Part shown: one piece after another, positions 738 to 39,860 of the stretch
Layout of the letters: each line of letters opens with the position of its first letter
How positions within the stretch are numbered: the stretch's first letter is position 1
Virus record (IMG/VR): IMGVR_UViG_2897358383_000002
Source of the DNA: a virus
Taxonomy: Duplodnaviria > Heunggongvirae > Uroviricota > Caudoviricetes
DNA: 64,000 bases
Direction: 5' to 3' (one strand)
Notes under the pieces: model-generated
Seen by the model: only the letters and a program-made list of their open reading frames with translations
The model's database searches: none
Told to the model about the DNA's origin: nothing
Translations under genes and position numbers: made by a program

Positions 738-3725
738 ATGAGCTTAAGCGATCAGGTGGTAATGGCCACCAGCATAGAAACGCTGATCGAGCTGCTAAAG
801 AACCTGCCCGATTATGGGCGGGTTTCGTATGTGGTGACAGCGAAGGGAGACGAGGTAAAAACAGCGTTTGATATCGTCGATGCCTCAGCTCTTTTGGTAT
901 CCAATACTCTGGATGGGAAAATTAATCCTGACTATCCCCAGGAACTTCAGCCGCGCGACCGGACCCGCGCATCCAGCCTTCTTCAGGTTAACCAGATATC
1001 CAAAGATTTGCGGCCAGCTCAGCTTACTGATTCCGGTTTATCCAGCCATGGTGCGCCGATAATTGGTGAGGACAATGCCGTTGAGTCAGGTAATGGACGG
1101 ACCATGGGGATCATCAAAGCCTATCAGGACGGCAATGCGGATCGGTATCATGAGTACCTGATTGAACATGCGACCGAATTCGGCATACCTCCTGAAAAGG
1201 TTGAATCAATGACGGCTCCGGTACTGGTGCGCCGCCGGTTAACTAAGGTTGACCGCGTTCAGTTTGCCAAGGACTCAAATATTTCTGATCTTCAGGAAAT
1301 GGCAGCCAGTGAAAAAGCTTTTGTTGATGCCGACAGCATAACACCGGCGATGATGGCGCTTTTTAACCCGTCAGAAAGCGGAGATCTGCTTAGCCGCAGT
1401 AATGACGCGTTTATTCGCGGATTTATGACGCAAGTTGGTGCCACACAGGCGGCTGGCCTTGTAACTGAAGATGGGCGACCAACACGGCAACTTGTAGACC
1501 GTATACAAAACGCGATCTTTGCCAAGGCATATAAGGATGCGCGCCTGGTAAGGATGGTTGCAGAAGAACCTGATCCGGATATGCGTAATGTTCTGACGGC
1601 GCTTAATGCGGCAGCCAATGATTTTGTCCAGATGCAGGCTTTATCAGGAGAAGCGCACAAGCAGGCTGTGACAACTATTGTTGATGGCATTGAGACAGCA
1701 GATAGCCTCGATAAAATGGCGCTGGCGGCATTGAAAGATGCGGTAGACCTGGTAAGGCAATCGAAGGAGTCAGGCCAGCATATTACCGATGTTATTGCTC
1801 AGGGGGATATGTTCAGCGAAACGGCCCCGGAAGTGAAAGCACTCGCGTTGTTCATCGTCGCGAATAACCGTAGCGCGAAGCGTATGGCCACCGCCTTTAA
1901 GTTGATGGCTCAACGTATCAATGATGAGTTACAGCACCAGGGCCAGGCGCTGGGGGATATGTTTGGCGGCGGCGATGTGTCGTTACAGGATATCCTTCGC
2001 CAGGTGTCTCAGGAACTGGAAAACGAAGGCATGCAAGGGATATCCGGCGGTCTTTTCGAGTCCGTTTCCGGCGGTAGTTACAACGGTGTTGCTCCGTATA
2101 CCAGTTTGCTATTACATCGGGCATCCGGCATCAAAGACATTATTCATCTGATCAGGCTGCTTTCCCGCACAGATCCCCAGGATGAACAGCTTGTACAAGT
2201 GCTTGCGCATTTTGTTCGAATGCCTGTTGCCGACGTGAAAAAATGGTGCCGATTATTCGGTATCAGCAATTCGTTACTTCGCGGCTTGTTAAATCACGCA
2301 TCCTCCCTTGGGCGCGATGGCTTTGACGAGATAGCGCAGGCGATAAAAAACGGAGATATGCCACCAGCTATTGACTGGTTTTCCATTCGCCCAACCAGGG
2401 TGAAAGCATTCCTTAGCGCGGCGCATTCGGCATCACCATTGGCAGAAATGGTTCAGAGGTTGTCGCTCATATTCACAGACCATACCGCGTTGGGTGATCT
2501 GACTCTGGACGAGATGAAAGAAGCCTCCATTCAGTGGGCCGATCAACAAAATGAGGTTAACTCAGACTTCTTGCCAGCATTCAGGAAGGCCGTTAGTAAA
2601 GCGGATGATGCCCGTGGAATTCTGAAGGCATTTAAGGCATTGCAAAGTCGTGTTAATAAACATGTCGGTGATATCGATGGGGTAACGGCGGAAGGCCGGG
2701 ATATCCTTAAAGAGCACGGCATAACGCCAGAGTTTATTGATGAGATCAGGACTGATATGCAGCGTGAGGTCGTATCGTCCCTGCAAATCGTAGCCAGAGC
2801 GTTGGCGGATGCTAATCCGAAGAGTGCGGCCATTGTTAACCGGGTTATTGGTGATATTGAAGCATCGGAGGGCATGGGGGCGCTGAAACTCTTCCTTTCG
2901 CGAGCGTTTAATCCTAACGGCAATATTCTCCCTGGCATTATTGGTGAGGCTAAAAGGTATGTCAGTGAAGAAGAACTTGAGCAGCTTGACCAACTACTTA
3001 AGCGATTCTCATATAACCCGCAGACACGCTGGCAAATGAATCAGCAAAGTATGGGTTCGGTCCACGAGAAAGTGTTATCTGCCATGAACAGTGCGATTGC
3101 CAACTCATCCGTATCTGAAGAAAAAGCTCTTGAGTGGGCCGACTCTTTTATCACGGAAGAAGTGGAAGAAGCCCGCGCTGGACAGAATGGTGGAATAGAC
3201 CTGCGCAAGGAACTTGCTGATATTTATCGCCTGACCGGCGGGAAAATATCAACCTTATCAAGGGTAATTCACCACAAGGGTAGGGCGTATGCAAATCTTA
3301 ATGGTGTTGTTGCTGTCAATTTGAACGATGAAAATGCAAGTGCACTGTGGCACGAGCTGGGTCATCATCTTGAGTACAGTAACCCTGGTTTGTTAGAGAA
3401 AGCCCGGTCATTCCTGAAGGCCAATGTTGAAGGGGATAAGCCATCTTTCGTCAATATCGGTGGGCGTGGCAAGCCTGAATGGTGCTTCAGATCTCGATTG
3501 AGTAATATTTATATGGCGAAGGTATACCCGCCAGCCTCAGTAAGTAACACCGGGAAAATTCGGCAGAAATCACCGACTATTTCCAAAACGTCAGCAACGG
3601 AAGTATTCTCTATGGCTCTTCAGTTGTATCATGACAAAGAGGCCGCTGCCGCATCACTGATGAATGGTGACGGATTGCTGGAACTGTTATTAGGTGTGGC
3701 AAAGGAGCTAAATAATGCAGATTAA
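738..3725 (+). CDS. large 995-aa protein, DdrB-like by size and position; carries an HEXXH motif (HELGHH) and a possible ParB-like motif (QPRDRTRA) near the N-terminus
   Basis: ORF track; motifs read in translation; P1 darA-operon context recalled from memory. Confidence 0.5.
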   Translation: MSLSDQVVMATSIETLIELLKNLPDYGRVSYVVTAKGDEVKTAFDIVDASALLVSNTLDGKINPDYPQELQPRDRTRASSLLQVNQISKDLRPAQLTDSGLSSHGAPIIGEDNAVESGNGRTMGIIKAYQDGNADRYHEYLIEHATEFGIPPEKVESMTAPVLVRRRLTKVDRVQFAKDSNISDLQEMAASEKAFVDADSITPAMMALFNPSESGDLLSRSNDAFIRGFMTQVGATQAAGLVTEDGRPTRQLVDRIQNAIFAKAYKDARLVRMVAEEPDPDMRNVLTALNAAANDFVQMQALSGEAHKQAVTTIVDGIETADSLDKMALAALKDAVDLVRQSKESGQHITDVIAQGDMFSETAPEVKALALFIVANNRSAKRMATAFKLMAQRINDELQHQGQALGDMFGGGDVSLQDILRQVSQELENEGMQGISGGLFESVSGGSYNGVAPYTSLLLHRASGIKDIIHLIRLLSRTDPQDEQLVQVLAHFVRMPVADVKKWCRLFGISNSLLRGLLNHASSLGRDGFDEIAQAIKNGDMPPAIDWFSIRPTRVKAFLSAAHSASPLAEMVQRLSLIFTDHTALGDLTLDEMKEASIQWADQQNEVNSDFLPAFRKAVSKADDARGILKAFKALQSRVNKHVGDIDGVTAEGRDILKEHGITPEFIDEIRTDMQREVVSSLQIVARALADANPKSAAIVNRVIGDIEASEGMGALKLFLSRAFNPNGNILPGIIGEAKRYVSEEELEQLDQLLKRFSYNPQTRWQMNQQSMGSVHEKVLSAMNSAIANSSVSEEKALEWADSFITEEVEEARAGQNGGIDLRKELADIYRLTGGKISTLSRVIHHKGRAYANLNGVVAVNLNDENASALWHELGHHLEYSNPGLLEKARSFLKANVEGDKPSFVNIGGRGKPEWCFRSRLSNIYMAKVYPPASVSNTGKIRQKSPTISKTSATEVFSMALQLYHDKEAAAASLMNGDGLLELLLGVAKELNNAD

Positions 3726-4023
3726 AATCGCAGCGCCATTAGGTGGAGATGCCATTATCGAATTTGATGATAATGAAGAAGTTTCCGGGCGTTTAAGCAT
3801 TATCTCCGGTGACATTACCGAGGACATGATCGCTGAAGCCATAGCTGGAGCAAATCCCAATAGCTATATGGGATTCGTTAACACCCTTGATGCTCCCGCA
3901 AGTGATGTTCTCCGAACGCTGCATCTTTACGCTGGCTGGTTTGTTGATTGGCCAGCAGTAGATGGTGGCGATGAGGACGACGACGATGATTTGGGTGATC
4001 ATGTGGATCAGTTTGTATATTAG
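3715..4023 (+). CDS. hypothetical 102-aa protein with acidic C-terminal tail (DGGDEDDDDD)
   Basis: ORF track; overlaps the stop of the upstream gene. Confidence 0.4.
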   Translation: MQIKIAAPLGGDAIIEFDDNEEVSGRLSIISGDITEDMIAEAIAGANPNSYMGFVNTLDAPASDVLRTLHLYAGWFVDWPAVDGGDEDDDDDLGDHVDQFVY

Positions 4024-4229
4024 ATACTAACAGATCGTCTATGTGGCTAGAATCGTTCGAGTTTAGCGATTAACGGAAGTTCTGGTCGATTATGATTAGT
4101 GCATATTCATGCACAGGCACACAAAATCTGGAGATATTGATCAGCGTTTATGTATAGTTTGTAATATAAAAATCGCCTTGAACGGAGTTTGTGCGTTATG
4201 AGAATCAATCTTAACTCTGGAGTAAGATA

Positions 4230-6917: not shown

Positions 6918-6934
6918 AAATTAATTAGAGCAAT
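6918..6934 (-). promoter_or_regulatory. C1 operator-like site (attgctctaattaattt, 16/17 to consensus) upstream of ssb
   Basis: match to P1 C1 operator consensus ATTGCTCTAATAAATTT. Confidence 0.6.
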
Positions 6935-7067: not shown

Positions 7068-7625
7068 ATGAAGGGAAAAACAGCCGCAGGAGGCGGTGCA
7101 ATTTGCGCTATCGCGGTGATGATTACCATCGTGATGGGTAATGGCAATGTGCGAACCAACCAGGCGGGGCTTGAGCTGATTGGTAACGCTGAAGGTTGCC
7201 GACGTGATCCATACATGTGCCCGGCGGGGGTATGGACTGACGGGATCGGTAATACACACGGGGTAACGCCGGGTGTGCGAAAAACCGACCAGCAAATCGC
7301 CGCTGATTGGGAAAAGAATATCCTGATCGCTGAACGCTGTATTAATCAGCACTTCCGGGGCAAAGACATGCCCGATAATGCCTTCAGTGCAATGACAAGC
7401 GCGGCATTCAATATGGGATGCAATAGCTTACGGACCTACTACAGCAAAGCGCGAGGCATGCGAGTAGAAACGTCCATCCACAAGTGGGCGCAGAAAGGGG
7501 AATGGGTGAATATGTGTAACCATCTCCCTGATTTCGTGAACAGTAACGGCGTGCCCCTGCGAGGTTTAAAGATTCGCCGTGAAAAAGAACGCCAGCTTTG
7601 CCTGACGGGGCTTGTCAATGAATAA
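7068..7625 (+). CDS. lyz: SAR endolysin, T4-lysozyme-like (P1 Lyz-like), 185 aa
   Basis: start moved to MKGKTAAGGGAICAIAVMITIV (signal-anchor-release helix) with GAGG RBS; lysozyme core follows. Confidence 0.85.
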   Translation: MKGKTAAGGGAICAIAVMITIVMGNGNVRTNQAGLELIGNAEGCRRDPYMCPAGVWTDGIGNTHGVTPGVRKTDQQIAADWEKNILIAERCINQHFRGKDMPDNAFSAMTSAAFNMGCNSLRTYYSKARGMRVETSIHKWAQKGEWVNMCNHLPDFVNSNGVPLRGLKIRREKERQLCLTGLVNE

Positions 7626-7866
7626 ACTCCGGCAGCTCCGCCGACTTTCGACAATGAAGTTATCGCTGGCGGCGATAGTTTTTGACTCGATTTTCATGGC
7701 GGTATATGTGCTCAATGAGACGTGGCCACTGGAACCGCTATTGTATGCCGGGCTTCGGCTGTGCCTGACATTTTTGAGCATGGCTGCGAGATTGATGCAG
7801 CAGAAAGAAACCGCTTCAGATTGTCCACGCCGCGCGGTGCGCAAATATATGGCACGAAGGCGATAA
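7612..7866 (+). CDS. hypothetical 84-aa protein with hydrophobic segment, immediately upstream of the IS200 left end
   Basis: ORF track only. Confidence 0.25.
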   Translation: MSMNKLRQLRRLSTMKLSLAAIVFDSIFMAVYVLNETWPLEPLLYAGLRLCLTFLSMAARLMQQKETASDCPRRAVRKYMARRR

Positions 7867-7874
7867 TAGTTAAC

Positions 7875-8585
7875 GAGAACCCCGGCAGCTGCCGGGGTTA
7901 TTTTTGTGCACAGAAAACCCCCAGCTAGGCTGGGGGTTCCGGAAAGCTTTCAGCTTTAAGCCAGTTATTAAAACCCCTTTTGATTTGTTAAAACACCTTG
8001 CGGTCTGGCAACTGCAAGTGTCAAACAAGAAATCAAAAGGGGGTCCCAATGGGGAACGAAAAGAGCTTAGCGCACACCCGATGGAACTGTAAATATCACA
8101 TAGTTTTTGCGCCAAAATACCGAAGACAGGTGTTCTACAGAGAGAAGCGTAGAGCAATAGGCAGTATTTTGAGAAAGCTGTGTGAGTGGAAAAGTGTACG
8201 GATTCTGGAAGCTGAATGCTGTGCAGATCATATCCATATGCTTGTGGAGATCCCGCCCAAAATGAGCGTATCCGGCTTTATGGGATATCTGAAAGGGAAA
8301 AGCAGTCTGATGCTTTACGAGCAGTTTGGTGATTTGAAATTCAAATACAGGAACAGGGAGTTCTGGTGCAGAGGGTACTACGTCGATACGGTGGGTAAGA
8401 ACACGGCGAAGATACAGGATTACATAAAGCACCAGCTTGAAGAGGATAAAATGGGAGAGCAGTTATCGATTCCCTATCCGGGCAGCCCGTTTACGGGCCG
8501 TAAGTAACGAAGTTGGATGCAAATGTCAGATCGTGTGCGCCTGTTAGGGCGCGGCTGGTAAGAGAGCCTTATAGGCGCATTTGAA
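7875..8585 (+). mobile_element. IS200-like insertion sequence (boundaries approximate)
   Basis: left-end perfect palindrome aaccccggcagctgccggggtt and a second stem-loop before the RBS; tnpA inside; about 710 bp. Confidence 0.6.
8049..8507 (+). CDS. tnpA: IS200 Y1 (HUH) transposase TnpA, 152 aa
   Basis: MGNEKSLAHTRWNCKYHIVFAPKYRR...HIHMLVEIPPK matches IS200 TnpA as I recall it; start moved to internal ATG at 8049. Confidence 0.9.
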   Translation: MGNEKSLAHTRWNCKYHIVFAPKYRRQVFYREKRRAIGSILRKLCEWKSVRILEAECCADHIHMLVEIPPKMSVSGFMGYLKGKSSLMLYEQFGDLKFKYRNREFWCRGYYVDTVGKNTAKIQDYIKHQLEEDKMGEQLSIPYPGSPFTGRK

Positions 8586-23466: not shown

Positions 23467-24498
23467 CTAATCGCCATCTTCCAGCAGGCGCACCATTGCC
23501 CCCGTTTCACTATCCAGGTTACGGATATAGTTCATGACAATATTTACGTTGGTCCAGCCACCAGCTTGCATGATCTCCGGTATTGAAACTCCGGCGCGGG
23601 CCATATCTCGCGCGGCTCCGACACGGGCACTGTGTCCAGACCAGGCCAGGTATCTCTGACCAGAGTCATCCTTAGCGCCGTAAATCAATCGATGAGTTGC
23701 TTCAAAAATCCCTTCCAGGGCGCGAGTTGATAGCTGGCTGGTGGCAGATGGCGCGGCAACACCATTTTTTCTGACACGGCAAAACAAGTAGTTATTCGGA
23801 TCATCAGCCACACCAGAGACAGAAATCCATCGCTCGACCAGTTTAGTTACCCCCAGGCTAAGTGCCTTCTCTACACCTGCGGTGCTAACCAGCGTTTTCG
23901 TTCTGCCAATATGGATTAACATTCTCCCACCGTCAGTACGTGAGATATCTTTAACCCTGATCCTGGCAATTTCGGCTATACGTAATAGGGTGTTATAAGC
24001 AATCCCCAGAAATGCCAGATTACGTATATCCTGGCAGCGATCGCTATTTTCCATGAGTGAACGAACCTGGTCGAAATCAGTGCGTTCGAACGCCAGTGCC
24101 TGTTTTGCACGTTCACCGGCATCAACGTTTTCTTTTCGGATCCGTCGCATGACCAGTGAAACAGCATTACTGTCACTTGGTCGTGGCAGCCCGGACCGAC
24201 GATGAAGCATGTTTAGCTGGCCCAAATGTTGCTGGATAGTTTTTACTGCCAGACCGCGCGCCTGAAGATATAGAAGATAATCGCGAACATCTTCAGGTTC
24301 TGCGGGAAACCATTTCCGGTTATTCAACTTGCACCATGCCGCCCACGACCGGCAAACGGACAGAAGCATTTTCCAGGTATGCTCAGAAAACGCCTGGCGA
24401 TCCCTGAACATGTCCATCAGGTTCTTGCGAACCTCATCACTCGTTGCATCGACCGGTAATGCAGGCAAATTTTGGTGTACGGTCAGTAAATTGGACAT
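23467..24498 (-). CDS. cre: Cre site-specific tyrosine recombinase, 343 aa
   Basis: translation MSNLLTVHQNLPALPVDATSDEVRKNL...MVRLLEDGD matches canonical Cre as I recall it. Confidence 0.98.
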   Translation of the reverse strand: MSNLLTVHQNLPALPVDATSDEVRKNLMDMFRDRQAFSEHTWKMLLSVCRSWAAWCKLNNRKWFPAEPEDVRDYLLYLQARGLAVKTIQQHLGQLNMLHRRSGLPRPSDSNAVSLVMRRIRKENVDAGERAKQALAFERTDFDQVRSLMENSDRCQDIRNLAFLGIAYNTLLRIAEIARIRVKDISRTDGGRMLIHIGRTKTLVSTAGVEKALSLGVTKLVERWISVSGVADDPNNYLFCRVRKNGVAAPSATSQLSTRALEGIFEATHRLIYGAKDDSGQRYLAWSGHSARVGAARDMARAGVSIPEIMQAGGWTNVNIVMNYIRNLDSETGAMVRLLEDGD

Positions 24499-24985: not shown

Positions 24986-25002
24986 AGAATTATTAGAGCA
25001 AT
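24986..25002 (-). promoter_or_regulatory. C1 operator-like site (15/17), immunity-region operator cluster
   Basis: match to C1 operator consensus. Confidence 0.55.
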
Positions 25003-25062: not shown

Positions 25063-25085
25063 TTGACAATTGCTCTAATAAATTA
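25063..25085 (+). promoter_or_regulatory. C1 operator (attgctctaataaatta, 16/17) abutting a TTGACA -35 hexamer; candidate coi-c1 promoter/operator
   Basis: TTGACA at 25063..25068 directly followed by operator. Confidence 0.6.
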
Positions 25086-25643: not shown

Positions 25644-26495
25644 ATGATAAATTATGTCTACGGCGAACAACTGTACCAGGAGTTCGTCAGCTTCAGGGAT
25701 CTCTTTCTAAAAAAAGCTGTTGCACGCGCCCAACACGTTGATACAGCCAGCGACGGTCGTCCTGTACGCCCGGTTGTCGTTCTACCGTTCAAAGAAACTG
25801 ACAGCATTCAGGCTGAAATTGATAAATGGACTTTAATGGCGCGGGAACTGGAACAGTACCCAGACCTCAATATCCCAAAGACTATTTTATATCCAGTGCC
25901 TAACATCCTTCGCGGTGTGCGTAAGGTTACAACTTATCAGACAGAAGCTGTGAACAGCGTCAACATGACCGCTGGCCGCATTATTCATCTGATTGATAAG
26001 GACATTCGCATCCAAAAAAGCGCGGGGATCAATGAGCACAGTGCGAAATACATAGAGAACCTGGAAGCAACAAAAGAGCTAATGAAGCAGTACCCGGAGG
26101 ATGAAAAATTCCGTATGCGCGTACACGGCTTTAGCGAAACAATGCTGCGCGTCCACTACATTTCCAGTAGCCCTAACTACAATGATGGTAAATCAGTTAG
26201 TTACCATGTGCCACTGTGTGGCGTGTTTATCTGCGATGAAACTCTCCGTGATGGAATTATCATCAACGGTGAATTCGAAAAAGCAAAATTTAGCCTTTAT
26301 GACTCCATAGAACCGATCATCTGCGACCGCTGGCCGCAAGCAAAAATATATCGCCTGGCAGATATTGAAAATGTAAAAAAACAAATTGCCATCACTCGCG
26401 AAGAGAAAAAGGTTAAGTCAGCCGCATCAGTTACGCGCAGCCGTAAAACCAAGAAGGGGCAGCCAGTAAACGACAACCCCGAAAGCGCGCAATAA
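25644..26495 (+). CDS. c1: C1 repressor of lysis, 283 aa
   Basis: MINYVYGEQLYQEFVSFRDLFLKK... matches P1 C1 as I recall; cognate operators throughout window. Confidence 0.9.
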   Translation: MINYVYGEQLYQEFVSFRDLFLKKAVARAQHVDTASDGRPVRPVVVLPFKETDSIQAEIDKWTLMARELEQYPDLNIPKTILYPVPNILRGVRKVTTYQTEAVNSVNMTAGRIIHLIDKDIRIQKSAGINEHSAKYIENLEATKELMKQYPEDEKFRMRVHGFSETMLRVHYISSSPNYNDGKSVSYHVPLCGVFICDETLRDGIIINGEFEKAKFSLYDSIEPIICDRWPQAKIYRLADIENVKKQIAITREEKKVKSAASVTRSRKTKKGQPVNDNPESAQ

Positions 26496-26498
26496 ATT

Positions 26499-26520
26499 AT
26501 GCCCGGCATCAACCGGGCAT
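26499..26520. terminator. hairpin atgcccgg-catcaa-ccgggcat between convergent c1 and antirepressor-like gene
   Basis: 8-bp perfect stem. Confidence 0.5.
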
Positions 26521-26527
26521 TCTTCCA

Positions 26528-27646
26528 TTATTCAGCCGCCACCGGTTTTAACAAGCCAGCATCGAGCAGTTTACGCGTCAACCACTGCTGGCCTTTACCC
26601 GTTAATTGAGGCGTCAACCGTATCTGGTAGCCATCTTCATCATCCAGCACCACTTCTTTCACCGTGAAATACCCCGCGTTGATGTACTGCTGGAACGGCA
26701 CATTTTTACGTCCACCGGACGCTATCAGGATGCCGTTCTCCCGTAACCAGACAAACAGCGCGTTTTGTTTAAGTCCAACAACCTTTGCAAAATTCCCAAT
26801 CAGGATCCCTTTAGCTACTGATACCCGGTCGGCAAAATCGACTTTAGGAGCGGCGGCCACCAGCTGCTGATTTAGCTGGTGGGCTTTCTGTTCCAGAAGT
26901 TGCTTTTGTTCAGCCAGTTCGGCAGCCAGGCGTAGGGCTTCAGGAAGCGTCTGGGGGATTGCGATCGGTTGCTGTTCTTTTTGTCGGAAGTAGCTGTCTT
27001 CCAGTTTTTCAAAGAATGCCCATGCCTGATCGGTTTCGAGCATTTTAGCGTGGCGGGCTGCGCCGCGTTCTGTCCAGAGGGTGAGTGAGCGAACATTGCG
27101 AGCAATTTTTACAGAGTAGTTTAAAGCTACTCTGTGCTTCAACTCGCGCAATGATTCTCCTTCAACTTTGAAAAAGTGCTTCCCTTCAACAAAGCGTACT
27201 TTGTTCTCATGATGATTTTGGCGAATACGGATTGTTTCTGTCCCATACCCTCTAGCAAGAGTCTCGGTTGTCACTACACGCACTCCCTGCCATTCCAGAA
27301 CGGGAATTTCATCAGACTGATTCTGAACAACCACCAGCTCCGATTCTTGAACTGAAGGTGCATGAATTTTTTCTGATTTAACGTTAGTTGCTTTCATTCT
27401 GTGTGCCTCCTTGCGTGCTTCGGCTGCGGCGGTTGCGTAATTCAGATGACCCTGTTCGAGCAGGTATTCGCGGATATCAGACAACAGGATACGGTGAACC
27501 GCGTTCTTGTCCTTTCTCCGGTAAAGTTGTTTGGTGATCATGAAGTAGTTGGCAATAACGCCTGGTATATCCCTGGTACTGATACAGGCAGTGTGCTGTT
27601 CAATTGCCTCGATCATCTCTTCACGGGTGACTAATGACGTTCTCAT
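26528..27646 (-). CDS. phage antirepressor-like protein (ORF6N-type N-terminal domain plus KilA-C/ANT-type C-terminal domain), 372 aa
   Basis: motifs VLEWQGVRVVTTETLARGYG...VRFVEGKHFF and C-terminal ...VPFQQYINAGYF...; translationally coupled to upstream small ORF. Confidence 0.65.
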   Translation of the reverse strand: MRTSLVTREEMIEAIEQHTACISTRDIPGVIANYFMITKQLYRRKDKNAVHRILLSDIREYLLEQGHLNYATAAAEARKEAHRMKATNVKSEKIHAPSVQESELVVVQNQSDEIPVLEWQGVRVVTTETLARGYGTETIRIRQNHHENKVRFVEGKHFFKVEGESLRELKHRVALNYSVKIARNVRSLTLWTERGAARHAKMLETDQAWAFFEKLEDSYFRQKEQQPIAIPQTLPEALRLAAELAEQKQLLEQKAHQLNQQLVAAAPKVDFADRVSVAKGILIGNFAKVVGLKQNALFVWLRENGILIASGGRKNVPFQQYINAGYFTVKEVVLDDEDGYQIRLTPQLTGKGQQWLTRKLLDAGLLKPVAAE

Positions 27647-27864
27647 AGTCCCTCCTGAGCAGAAGCGTTAACAGGGAGGCACCAGTAACTGAGAGAATTG
27701 CGTGAATCAGTGGAAAAACGGGCAGAGAAAATACATGGGGCGTCAGGAAGCTGAGAGCGGGCCTCATCTTCTGTCGGTGCAATAACGAAGTGATAGTGAC
27801 GTTTTTGGCAGGAGTAAAAGCGCCAGATAAATTCAGGATGAGTTGGGGTAGGGATAGTAGCCAT
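27643..27864 (-). CDS. hypothetical 73-aa protein (alternative 149-aa form from ATG at 28092)
   Basis: AAGGAGG 7 nt upstream of ATG at 27864; stop overlaps start of antirepressor-like gene. Confidence 0.35.
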   Translation of the reverse strand: MATIPTPTHPEFIWRFYSCQKRHYHFVIAPTEDEARSQLPDAPCIFSARFSTDSRNSLSYWCLPVNASAQEGL

Positions 27865-28183
27865 ATTGGCAGCCTCCTTAGACGTTGGTATGTAACCACC
27901 GCAGAAGAGACCAATCTTGCTGGCGGTGGACTGTACGGAGTTGGCCTTACTGGCGTCCAAGGTAACCAGCCTACCCGAAGGTAGCCCCATACAGCCCACC
28001 ATTGTAGAGGTGTGCGTGTACGCCGATACAAAAAAAAGACGCGAGCGGCGTCTGTATCGCCTTAGACTTAAGCGGGAGGCCAATCCCGGCACCCGTTTTA
28101 ATGAGGTGCCTGATAAGCATAAACCGAAAATGCCTCAAGGCGCAAGAGGTCAGGCTCAATGTAACATCGGTAGTTAAAAAACA

Positions 28184-28200
28184 CAATTTATTAGAGCAAA
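28184..28200 (-). promoter_or_regulatory. C1 operator-like site (15/17) upstream of the small-ORF/antirepressor operon
   Basis: ttgctctaataaatt core. Confidence 0.5.
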
Positions 28201-28203
28201 TAT

Positions 28204-29688
28204 TCATTCATTAAGCCATGCCAGAGCTTCATCAACCTGCGCTTCGTCTTCGACGCTAAGCACTTCATCCTGGGGAACATAATCCGCCAGCATAGCGAAA
28301 CAATATGTATCCCAATGGTCTGGTGAGTGCAGGTTGAGTTTTTTCTTCATATCCTCCTTACTCATCACCTTCCATTGACCTGCGGAGTTAATCCCTACAG
28401 GGATTTTCGACGCTTCCTCAATAGTTTCATTACCCTTATCCAGTCTCATACGACCAGATTTTACGGCCTCTGCGGCTTGAACGTTGGCATAAGCACGTTT
28501 ATCAAAGTACAGGCTCTTATCTTCACGGCTATGCATCTTTTTACCCCAGCGTATACGCTGTACGGTAATACCATAATACTCGTACATCAGATCCGCCGTT
28601 GCTTTACCCAGGCCATCGCCGTCTATCGCTATGGTGATATTTGGGAATCGCTCAGGATTACATTCTGCGAAAATTTTGGCGGCAAGCTGCGTTTCTGTAA
28701 CGTCTGTGTATTCCAGCATTCGATAGTTGATTACACGGCGTTTATTTCGCTGGCCGGACACCATCATGATATTGATAACGGACTTATCCCGTCCCGTACC
28801 ACCAGCAACGTCCACACATGCAAGCCAGCCCCATCCTTTGGCAATCTTGACTTTCCGCCGCGTTGCACGTTCAACCTCATCACGTCCAAGAAGGAAGCCA
28901 TCCTGTGATTTAGGGAATAGGCCGCGTACCTTAATCATGTACATAGGGTTATCACGCCCGCCGTACTCCGCCAGCTTCATTTTGATAAATGCTGGCGTTA
29001 CCAACGGTGATTCCTCACTGTTAAGCGTGATCGCCGTATAAACGCCATCAGGGTTACCAGGACGCTTGGCCAGTTTATGGTGTGTATCGTAGAAATAGCC
29101 GCTTGGGCGTGTAGGCTGTGACAGCAATAAGATGCGGTTATCCTGTCCGGTAAGAGCACCGGTGATGATACCGAAAGCTCTATCACTGACACCGGAGGCT
29201 TCATCGATAATATACAGAAGATGATCTGCGTGTTCACCGGCGAGAGCTTCTTCACTTCCCAGACGAAAGCCCTTCGGTACTACAGTCCATACACCTTTAC
29301 CAGTAACCTCATAGAAAGCGGTTTCTGTCAGAACAAAATAATCAGCAAGCCATGGAAAACGGCTGGTGGCAGTAGCCCAGTTTATCTTGATGTACTTGAA
29401 TATACCGGTCATTACCTGCTGAATTTTGTTCGCAACGATAATGGCGCGGGCACCGGGATACATGATTATGAACAACATGATCATGATAGAAGTCATGTCT
29501 GATTTCCCGGTACCGTGACCAGACGAAACAGATGTCTTGCTACCCTGTTCCTGCACAGACTCAATAATCAGATCCTGCTGCCAGGTAGGTGTTTTGCCGA
29601 ACAAAACATCAGCGGCAGCAATCCAGTCATAACGATATAGCGCCACCAGCTCGCGCCAACGTGGATCCGTTACGCAACTTCTGGCCAT
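28204..29688 (-). CDS. pacB: terminase large subunit PacB, 494 aa
   Basis: Walker A SGHGTGKS; downstream of pacA. Confidence 0.85.
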
Positions 29689-30881
29689 TAATCATCATCC
29701 CCGTATAGCTTGCGGGTAACTTCTTCGTCTTCCTCCTCGTCTTCGTCCAGGTCTTGTTCCAGCCATGGGTCGTTTGATACACCTTCAGTATCAACATCTC
29801 CATAACCGCCTGTATCAACGATATCGGCGATTTCTTCCCTACGCTGCTCAATCCACAATGCGGCATCGGCGCGGCGGTTGGCGGCCCGTTCTCGCGCAAC
29901 TTTGTCCAGATCTTCAAGAGAAGGGCCACCGACGGCTGTTTGCCTTTCCTCATCATCGGTATTGGTCTTAGGAGCACGCAGATCGGCTTTGATTTGCTCC
30001 AGCATCAGGGGCGGCACTTTTCCGCCATGCGCCTCGATGAATTCAGCTGCTTCCAGCACTGACCAGTTATTTTCACGCTTTCGTTCGTATGCCAGCTTAA
30101 CAATGCCAGCTTGCCCCATAGATAAAGCGTGCTTTTCCGCCTCCCGGCTTTCTTTTCGATAGTTATTCCGGATGCTGTAAATGGTGTTGATCAGGCTGCT
30201 TATCTGCGCGGAACAGCTGTTTAGCATGCTCGCGATACGATATTCAGGCGGAGTCCCTTCATCATCGTCTTTTTGCTGATCGCGCATTTCCTGCACCAGA
30301 CGAATACACGTATCCCTGGCGTTCTCCAGCATAAGGAGATGAGAAAGAGACTTTTCCAGAAGAGTGGTTTCCAGAACATCGGCCCCGGACCGACGCAACA
30401 TAGCGCGAGCGGCCTTCCGCGCTTCAACGTTATCTATCAGGTAATCGCCAGCTTCGAATTCAAAGCGTTCACCATCATCATCCAGGGTGTCGCGTTCCAG
30501 GCGATCACGTAAGGTCCGGTGGGCGCGGGTGATCACGTCATGATCATCAGAACGATCATTTATACGCTTATTTTGGCGCTTCGCATTCTCGACTGCGGCA
30601 CTGATAACGGCATTAACCCTTTGTTTTTCCGCTATTTCATCCGCAATGTGATCACCTGCATGTTGATCATTAGAGTGATCAATGATCATGCTTTTTAGTG
30701 GCTTCCTGACTGGTTTATTTGGCTTGCGGCTGTCCGCTGTCCTGGTGTCTTCTTTGAAGGCACGGAGATAACGACGTGCAGTATTAGGGTTAAGATTAAA
30801 CTCGGCGGCATACTGTGCGATGGTGTAACCACCATCTCGCGCCAGGCGAGCAAAATTCTTCTTGTGATCGTCCCAGGTCAC
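29688..30881 (-). CDS. pacA: terminase small subunit PacA (contains pac site), 397 aa
   Basis: pac hexamer cluster inside the gene; N-terminal HTH-like region. Confidence 0.8.
30531..30688. other. pac packaging site: two clusters of TGATCA(C/G) hexamers (3 + 4) carrying GATC Dam sites
   Basis: gatcacgtcatgatcatcagaacgatca ... gtgatcacctgcatgttgatcattagagtgatcaatgatca. Confidence 0.75.
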
Positions 30882-39843: not shown

Positions 39844-39860
39844 ATATTTATTAGAGCAAT
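39844..39860 (-). promoter_or_regulatory. C1 operator (16/17)
   Basis: attgctctaataaatat on minus strand. Confidence 0.6.

Follow-up and report, generated by a model that had tools for sequence, protein, structure and literature searches.

The 64,000-nucleotide (nt) window analyzed here (IMG/VR record IMGVR_UViG_2897358383_000002) comes from a P1-like phage-plasmid, in an orientation reversed relative to the P1 map, and carries between its pacB and c1 genes a region that is very probably a complete and intact second cassette of the immI type, inserted at this point. Whereas in P1 and P7 only 24 nt separate the stop codons of pacB and c1, the window has in their place a minus-strand cassette of ~1.7 kb (26496-28203). 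The region corresponds part for part to the annotated immI of P1 and is therefore a paralogue of immI rather than a different circuit; it is distinct in its location and in its RNA specificity, and the kind of circuit and its mechanism are already known. The anatomy of the cassette, its homology to immI, the covariation of its antisense RNA with the RNA targets, and the purifying selection acting on its reading frames are all observed directly in the sequences compared (positions in Table 1).

The immI locus of P1 and P7 has the order Oc4/Op51 - P51a/P51b - a1 b1 - c4 - a2 b2 - icd - ant1/ant2, and the window cassette shows the same order and spacing. Common to both are a C1 operator over the upstream promoter, a second promoter, a hairpin with a run of T residues before c4, a C4 fold with a b' loop and an a' tail, a b2 site over the icd Shine-Dalgarno sequence, a 73-residue Icd, ATGA coupling, an ant2 start at codon 84, and a KilAC C-terminus that is ~93% identical. 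The differences concern the location (between sim and kilA-repL for immI of P1 and P7, the pacB/c1 spacer in the window), the leader RNA (c4-a1b1 type in P1 immI, isrK type in the window), the recognition sequences, which are unrelated (a' AGGCCAA and b' CCUUGGAC in the window versus CUGUCAA and UCACUAAC in P1), the C4 stems, which are rebuilt with compensatory changes, and the middle of Ant, which in the window is an ORF6N domain. At the nucleotide level, P1 and P7 match the window locus only at the flanks and over the last ~335 nt of the large open reading frame (ORF; 86%), and the latter match is to the 3' end of ant in immI.

The original prediction for this locus described an operator-like site, a small ORF with a strong AAGGAGG ribosome-binding site, and a translationally coupled 372-residue protein with ORF6N and KilA-C/ANT domains, adjoining pacB and convergent with c1. 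All of these were recovered, and the comparison with the c1-pacB region of P1, which it had suggested, places the operon outside the P1 backbone. The misgiving that the operon might prove an ordinary conserved P1 backbone feature of known function was thus half right: the cassette does not belong to the backbone, but the system of which it is a paralogue has a known function. The contrast drawn with canonical P1 immI is false, because immI is itself repressed by C1 through Oc4/Op51 as well as being controlled by C4 (PMC8198154; the operator is also annotated in the P1 RefSeq record). Overlooked were the Icd identity of the small ORF, the IsrK-type leader with its terminator, and the C4 gene with its targets.

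At gathering thresholds, the Rfam scan of the window yielded the isrK leader and C4, both on the operon strand. The C4 gene holds its b' sequence in a hairpin loop (27962-27955) and its a' sequence in a single-stranded segment (27947-27941), and its single-sequence minimum free energy structure (-40.7 kcal/mol) has the shape of the consensus fold of 6 C4 variants, in which 12 of the 28 pairs show compensatory changes and b' and a' are unpaired. In the leader, site a1 (TTGGCCT, 28083-28077) sits in a predicted hairpin loop and is followed by b1 (GTCTAAGG, 28067-28060). The a2 and b2 sites of the icd-ant mRNA lie at positions homologous to the annotated a2 and b2 of P1, with b2 overlapping the icd Shine-Dalgarno sequence. 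Counting Watson-Crick and G-U pairs, a' and b' pair with all four sites over their full lengths (7/7 and 8/8), just as the a' and b' of P1 C4 are complementary to the annotated a1/a2 and b1/b2 of P1.

Across 10 aligned cassettes, a'/a1/a2 and b'/b1/b2 change together. The aligned copies were slot copies, that is, cassettes in the pacB/c1 spacer (RCS47, JL22, pE6474.2, and pEC21Z048), canonical copies (P1, P7, RCS47, JL22, and p50579417_1), and further cassettes from a Salmonella Mbandaka plasmid and two plasmids of another backbone. The same holds for 78 IMG/VR loci fetched via the Icd protein: 8 b' types combine there in different ways with 5 a' types, and every cassette shows full complementarity at the four sites (7/7; 7-8/8). 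In-register cross-pairing is complete for cognate pairs only, and RNAduplex energies, which ignore intramolecular structure and serve as crude support only, are best on the cognate diagonal. P1 and P7 are the classical heteroimmune pair, and the window type differs from each other type at least as much as P1 does from P7 (6/8 and 6/7).

Upstream of the leader, the predicted C1 operator begins 3 nt past the pacB stop codon. It aligns with Oc4 of P1 immI, and the cassettes in the slots of RCS47, JL22, pE6474.2, and pEC21Z048 have the identical sequence. The -35 hexamer of a candidate upstream promoter, located in the sequence by aligning it with the annotated P1 promoter, overlaps the operator with the same geometry as in P1 P2c4/P51a. 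A second, downstream candidate has a predicted transcription start at ~28109, which is position 1 of the Rfam isrK model; its hexamers and spacing are kept in divergent IsrK-type cassettes, including those without an operator, with equivalents in pB2C_96 (TTGCGC-18-TATATT) and the Salmonella Mbandaka plasmid (TTGCGT-18-TATCCT). Homology and conservation thus suggest where both promoters may lie. The terminator at the leader/c4 boundary is kept in every IsrK-type cassette aligned, and P1 immI has a hairpin and T-run at the equivalent spot. Leader type and map position are uncoupled, since plasmid pR17.0904_99k of Salmonella Mbandaka holds an IsrK-type cassette (1254-2900) at the kilA-adjacent immI position.

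In the window, sites matching the C1 consensus with 3 or fewer mismatches number 16, against 0.4 expected from shuffled sequences. These sites map the C1 regulon of the phage: among them are a perfect site (55471-55487) and sites with one mismatch (such as 6918-6934, 25069-25085, 39844-39860, and 58993-59009), and the pairs at 24986/25069 and 55460/55471 resemble the bivalent or clustered C1 operators known from P1.

The small ORF encodes a protein with 53 of 66 residues identical to P1 Icd (80%; E 4e-41) that matches the NCBIfam model NF033153 (phage_ICD_like) at 49.8 bits, against a cut-off of 25. A listed 149-residue ORF with a GTG start was rejected as an in-frame upstream extension of icd running across the RNA gene, the true start being the ATG at 27864. 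Coupling to the next gene is by an ATGA overlap between the icd stop codon (TGA, 27645-27643) and the ant1 start codon (ATG, 27646-27644). In Pfam, the 372-residue protein matches ORF6N (PF10543; residues 116-202, E 2e-19, 70.1 bits against a gathering score of 27.8) and ANT/KilAC (PF03374; residues 260-361, E 4e-31, 107.9 bits against 25.3), whereas P1 Ant1 has the ANT match only and none in its middle; in NCBIfam, neither P1 Ant1 nor either of the Ants had a match. The protein is thus a mosaic relative to P1 Ant1: residues 1-95 are about two-thirds identical, the KilAC C-terminus is ~93% identical, and the ~130 residues of the ORF6N middle align poorly. Met84 aligns with the annotated P1 Ant2 start (codon 84 of ant1), and an ant2-like product is probably made from it.

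Both frames are under purifying selection. Across comparisons, the ratio of nonsynonymous to synonymous substitution rates (dN/dS) was 0.07-0.44 for ant and 0.04-0.29 for icd, and where the window copy was involved it was 0.26-0.44 for ant and 0.08-0.20 for icd (against other cassettes and P1 icd). Either leader type can precede ORF6N-type or P1-type Ants, and hence Ant domains and regulatory RNAs are shuffled independently.

The insert is common among plasmids. In PLSDB, 80% or more of it is present in 289 plasmids, with an identity of at least 99% in 79 of these, and copies that are 100% identical occur in several unrelated isolates. Flanks are contiguous, with little or nothing inserted, in 314 of the 702 PLSDB plasmids matching the P1 pacB/c1 junction, so that roughly half of the junction plasmids have something in the slot. 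The Prokaryotic Genome Annotation Pipeline (PGAP) labels the two genes "Icd-like" and "KilAC antirepressor," and the RCS47 record has "ant." Venturini et al. (2019) noted an ant insertion between pacB and c1 in one sentence, naming RCS47 (PMC6906374); beyond that sentence, nothing we found in the searchable literature treats the slot insert as a complete second immI that has a C4 code of its own. The cassettes found in the slot of RCS47, JL22, pTZ20_1P, and other P1-like plasmids share the insertion point and gene set of the window cassette, and in RCS47/JL22/pTZ20_1P-type slots the operator and promoter region is identical to that of the window cassette over ~150 nt and ant has ~88-90% nucleotide identity, but C4 and the four targets are of different types (b' CCUUUGAC in RCS47 and CCUUUUGC in JL22, both with a' GUCUCAA). 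For these RCS47/JL22-type slots, the published note and the record annotations consulted name only ant and hypothetical ORFs, with no RNA or Icd.

The annotation of the RNA gene needs correcting more widely. The C4 gene is unannotated in the records examined: none of the plasmid tables examined has a C4 feature, the PLSDB table listing no RNA genes at all. In several related cassettes, PGAP places a 120-nt "ash family protein" coding sequence just upstream of icd, over the aligned C4 position, which is probably a spurious ORF call over the RNA gene.

Several plasmids stack cassettes with different codes. Over 7.7 kb, the window is identical to the Escherichia coli plasmid p50579417_1 (NZ_CP033882.1), which also carries a canonical immI beside kilA, with a leader of the Rfam c4-a1b1 family, b' UCAUUCGU, and a' CUGCUAA; searching by motif for additional icd copies gave none, either in the window or across the 37 kb fetched from p50579417_1. 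RCS47 and JL22 each combine canonical and slot cassettes with unrelated codes. Plasmid unnamed2 of E. coli 2012C-4227 (NZ_CP013030.1) has four cassettes (by kilA, by lyz, in the pacB/c1 slot, and by ban), every one of which has a C1 operator lying ~200 nt before C4 and a b' loop unlike the other three (UCACAAUC, UCAUUCGU, CCUUGGAC, and UCAUGUAC); its module 2 has an ORF6N-type Ant behind a P1-type leader. In none of 8 multi-cassette contigs or genomes from IMG/VR is a b' type repeated.

More than one c4/icd region per genome is also found on a different backbone, in the D6-like plasmid prophage pYU39_89, which has two c4-icd regions, the second reported as c4 and icd only (PMC6799933). D6 matches both leader types, at two loci. 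Plasmids pB2C_96 and AR_0119 unitig_3 (~2500-2900), which belong to different replicon clusters and have a Ref nuclease gene nearby, carry IsrK-type c4-icd modules with a'/b' codes shared with P1-like cassettes; their homologous cassettes have no C1 operator (at least 6 mismatches in the best match), and the flanks fetched show no c1 or pacB. This distribution suggests that a promoter-leader-c4-icd-ant core moves between backbones and takes up the operator of the local repressor; it also hints at cross-family exchange of the core, with which cross-family RNA immunity would be possible.

Phage vB_EcoM-673R5 (ON470615.2) is 99.7% identical over the region, its leader scoring below the isrK gathering score. 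In its record, c1 and pacA are annotated as several short coding-sequence fragments (3247-4070 and 7285-8476) and the slot ant is shortened, a pattern suggestive of frameshifts or of sequencing errors in the genome as deposited.

From these comparisons, we propose how the promoters may be used, the RNA processed, and C1 bound by Ant, and what ecological role may follow. Two promoters would feed one transcript, the upstream one lying under the C1 operator and off in the lysogen, the downstream one constitutive. The transcript would open with the IsrK-type leader bearing a1/b1 as decoy sites, and most transcripts would end at the 28030 terminator. Those reading through would give rise to a processed C4-type RNA of ~80 nt. 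Hartmann et al. (1995) reportedly showed that RNase P releases C4 from the transcript of the operon. The b' loop and a' segment would then pair with a2/b2 on the same or sister mRNAs and hide the icd Shine-Dalgarno sequence, blocking translation of Icd, a block that ATGA coupling and polarity would extend to Ant1 and Ant2; the a1/b1-bearing leader would compete for C4.

In a lysogen, the cassette would thereby keep itself silent, along with any phage of the same C4 code that comes in. In a cell whose resident P1-type prophage does not have this code, an entering phage would produce Ant, and Ant would inactivate C1, a protein that in the window has 281 of 283 residues identical to P1 C1.100 (99%). 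Since the code of the window cassette is unrelated to that of the canonical immI of p50579417_1, the two cassettes should act independently and widen both immunity and anti-immunity. The cassette is thus most likely an orthogonal immunity/anti-immunity module. The guess of the original prediction at an extra induction or anti-immunity circuit was a fair one as to role; the circuit itself is a paralogue of a known system with the same regulatory logic.

Several other explanations can be weighed against an immI-type cassette. A plain antirepressor operon that answers directly to C1 alone, with a logic unlike that of immI, would fit the operator over the upstream promoter candidate; yet canonical immI has the same operator arrangement (PMC8198154), and between the operator and the ORFs of the window lie a full-length C4 gene and four matching targets. 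The C4 gene led us to reject this explanation, which we consider extremely improbable, and of the direct C1 control originally predicted what stands is the link to a C1 operator, not control by C1 alone, the cassette having its own C4 gene and a1/b1 and a2/b2 targets. The view that the insert has no function at present, as an inert duplicate or a remnant in decay that recombination has carried along, gains some ground from the pE6474.2 slot, in which only an ant fragment is annotated, and from the junction plasmids without a sizeable insert, in which the cassette is evidently dispensable. All frames of the window copy are, however, intact, the dN/dS values are low, C4 loops and targets keep their three-way covariation from type to type, and identical copies recur in several unrelated isolates; rejected on the selection and covariation evidence, this view appears highly unlikely.

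The same RNA-controlled architecture might instead serve another output, with Ant directed not at C1 but at something else (such as the repressors of other prophages, or DNA) or the IsrK-type leader working mainly as a stress-responsive induction switch, as in Gifsy-1. In favor of this are the swap of the Ant middle to ORF6N (some annotators call such a protein Roi), a leader that matches isrK and not the P1-type c4-a1b1 family, and the homologous cassettes on the operator-less plasmids pB2C_96 and AR_0119. At the isrK-orf45-anrP locus of Gifsy-1, moreover, the short IsrK RNA turns on translation of orf45-anrP in trans and induces the prophage (Hershko-Shalev et al. 2016, PMC4825925). Like that locus, the window cassette has an isrK-family leader with a Rho-independent terminator and presumed partial read-through, and a small ORF translationally coupled to an antirepressor; downstream, Gifsy-1 has a processed stable RNA, STnc1160, complementary to the leader, and C4, to which STnc1160 may be equivalent, sits likewise in the window. 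Unlike orf45, the small ORF of the window encodes an Icd homologue of 73 residues, a P1 C1 operator is fused upstream, and the output presumably acts on C1 rather than through the repressor/AntQ cascade of Gifsy-1. Given also that the N-terminal ~95 residues and KilAC are close to P1 Ant1, Ant2 start included, that ORF6N-type Ants also occur behind P1-type leaders (NZ_CP013030.1 module 2), and that the C1 operator of the P1-like copies ties expression to the C1 circuit, we regard a different output as unlikely, though not negligibly so.

A number of observations weigh against the immI-type assignment or limit what follows from it. The ORF6N middle is unlike that of P1 Ant1, so the target of Ant could differ. 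A strict consensus promoter scan reported neither promoter, both being weak matches. The pairing of C4 with its targets includes one G-U pair in a'/a2 and one in b'/b2 (also in b1). RCS47-type C4 falls short of full complementarity to the window b2 by a single position (crude duplex energies of -18.9 kcal/mol for this pair and -22.7 kcal/mol for the window pair), and so some cross-talk between slot types is possible. The canonical immI of the window itself, which would lie outside the 64 kb, is deduced from p50579417_1, whose match to the window was seen to be perfect over only the 7.7 kb compared; the fetched part of that plasmid did not contain the opening 300 nt of the window. Finally, some slot copies have decayed: pE6474.2 has only a 333-nt KilAC ant fragment annotated (1182-1514), in a PLSDB table that omits pseudogenes. 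Its c4 and icd look intact, and the antirepressor may have decayed there with the RNA immunity part retained.

Table 1. Features of the pacB-c1 region and of related cassettes (window positions unless another record is named).
Feature	Position	Strand	Details
cre	23467-24498	-	
c1	25644-26495	+	Convergent with the cassette
Hairpin between the convergent ant and c1 stop codons	26499-26520		Terminator scan; 9-bp stem with 6 GC pairs; weak T-tail
ant1-like gene, 372 residues	26528-27646	-	BLASTP against P1 Ant1: E 3e-130, 56% identity overall, middle poorly aligned
Putative ant2-like internal product, 289 residues	26528-27397	-	Met84 ATG 27397-27395 behind AAGGAGG 27412-27406
icd-like gene, 73 residues	27643-27864	-	ATG 27864; AAGGAGG 27879-27873, 8 nt upstream
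C4 target region, icd-ant mRNA	27873-27914	-	a2 TTGGTCT 27914-27908; b2 GTCTAAGG 27883-27876; Shine-Dalgarno AAGGAGG 27879-27873
C4-type antisense RNA gene	27919-28006	-	Rfam RF01695, 75.9 bits (gathering score 45), full-length, model positions 1-87
Intrinsic terminator, leader/c4 boundary	28030-28053	-	Terminator scan; stem AGACGC-CGCTC-GCGTCT (28053-28037), then T8
IsrK-type leader RNA	28032-28109	-	Rfam RF01394 isrK, 60.8 bits (gathering score 50), model positions 1-77
Candidate constitutive promoter	28116-28145	-	-35 TTGCGC 28145-28140, 18-nt spacer, -10 TATGCT 28121-28116
Candidate C1-controlled promoter	28158-28186	-	-35 TTGTGT 28186-28181, 17-nt spacer, -10 TACATT 28163-28158
Predicted C1 operator, TTTGCTCTAATAAATTG	28184-28200	-	15/17 against consensus ATTGCTCTAATAAATTT; positional homologue of P1 Oc4/Op51
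pacB	28204-29688	-	Stop codon 28204-28206
pacA	29688-30881	-	
Cassettes of NZ_CP013030.1	2509-2984, 29121-30704, 45581-47161, 72380-73885		Record coordinates
"ash family protein" coding sequence, pE6474.2, Mbandaka pR17.0904_99k, pB2C_96, AR_0119 unitig_3	2534-2653		Fetched-locus coordinates
"ash family protein" coding sequence, one further fetched locus	2339-2458		Fetched-locus coordinates

At its downstream end, the cassette meets c1 at a GC-rich hairpin that is possibly a bidirectional terminator and may guard c1 against convergent transcription. At the other end it starts right after pacB with no terminator between them, and late transcription could therefore read through into the cassette. 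Elsewhere in the window, Rfam matches include STnc490, an Hfq-binding small RNA (7916-8039, plus strand; 146 bits against a gathering score of 56), and three tRNA genes on the minus strand (53148-53220, 54655-54727, and 54733-54805; 65-75 bits). P1-type phages carry tRNA genes.

In E. coli and Salmonella, resistance and virulence genes travel on P1-like phage-plasmids, which are widespread, and whether two of these plasmids coexist, or one excludes or induces the other, depends on the C1/C4/Ant immunity circuit. Of the leads to emerge from the window, the way in which cassettes are stacked and combinatorially coded across these plasmids is the more interesting. As a tentative hypothesis, plausible if somewhat short of probable, we suggest that P1-like phage-plasmids and at least one other backbone carry 1 to 4 orthogonal C4/Icd/Ant cassettes at fixed sites (kilA, lyz, ban, and pacB/c1) with combinatorially shuffled a/b elements, that the set of C4 RNAs forms an "immunity barcode" deciding whether related phage-plasmids are excluded or overrun, and that the IsrK-type leader is a titratable decoy setting the threshold of the switch. 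If this is true, many P1-like phage-plasmids would carry an additional, independently coded immI cassette, with up to four cassettes per plasmid, and heteroimmunity of the P1/P7 kind would be a combinatorial trait spread over several loci, one that sequence alone reveals through the a'/b' types.

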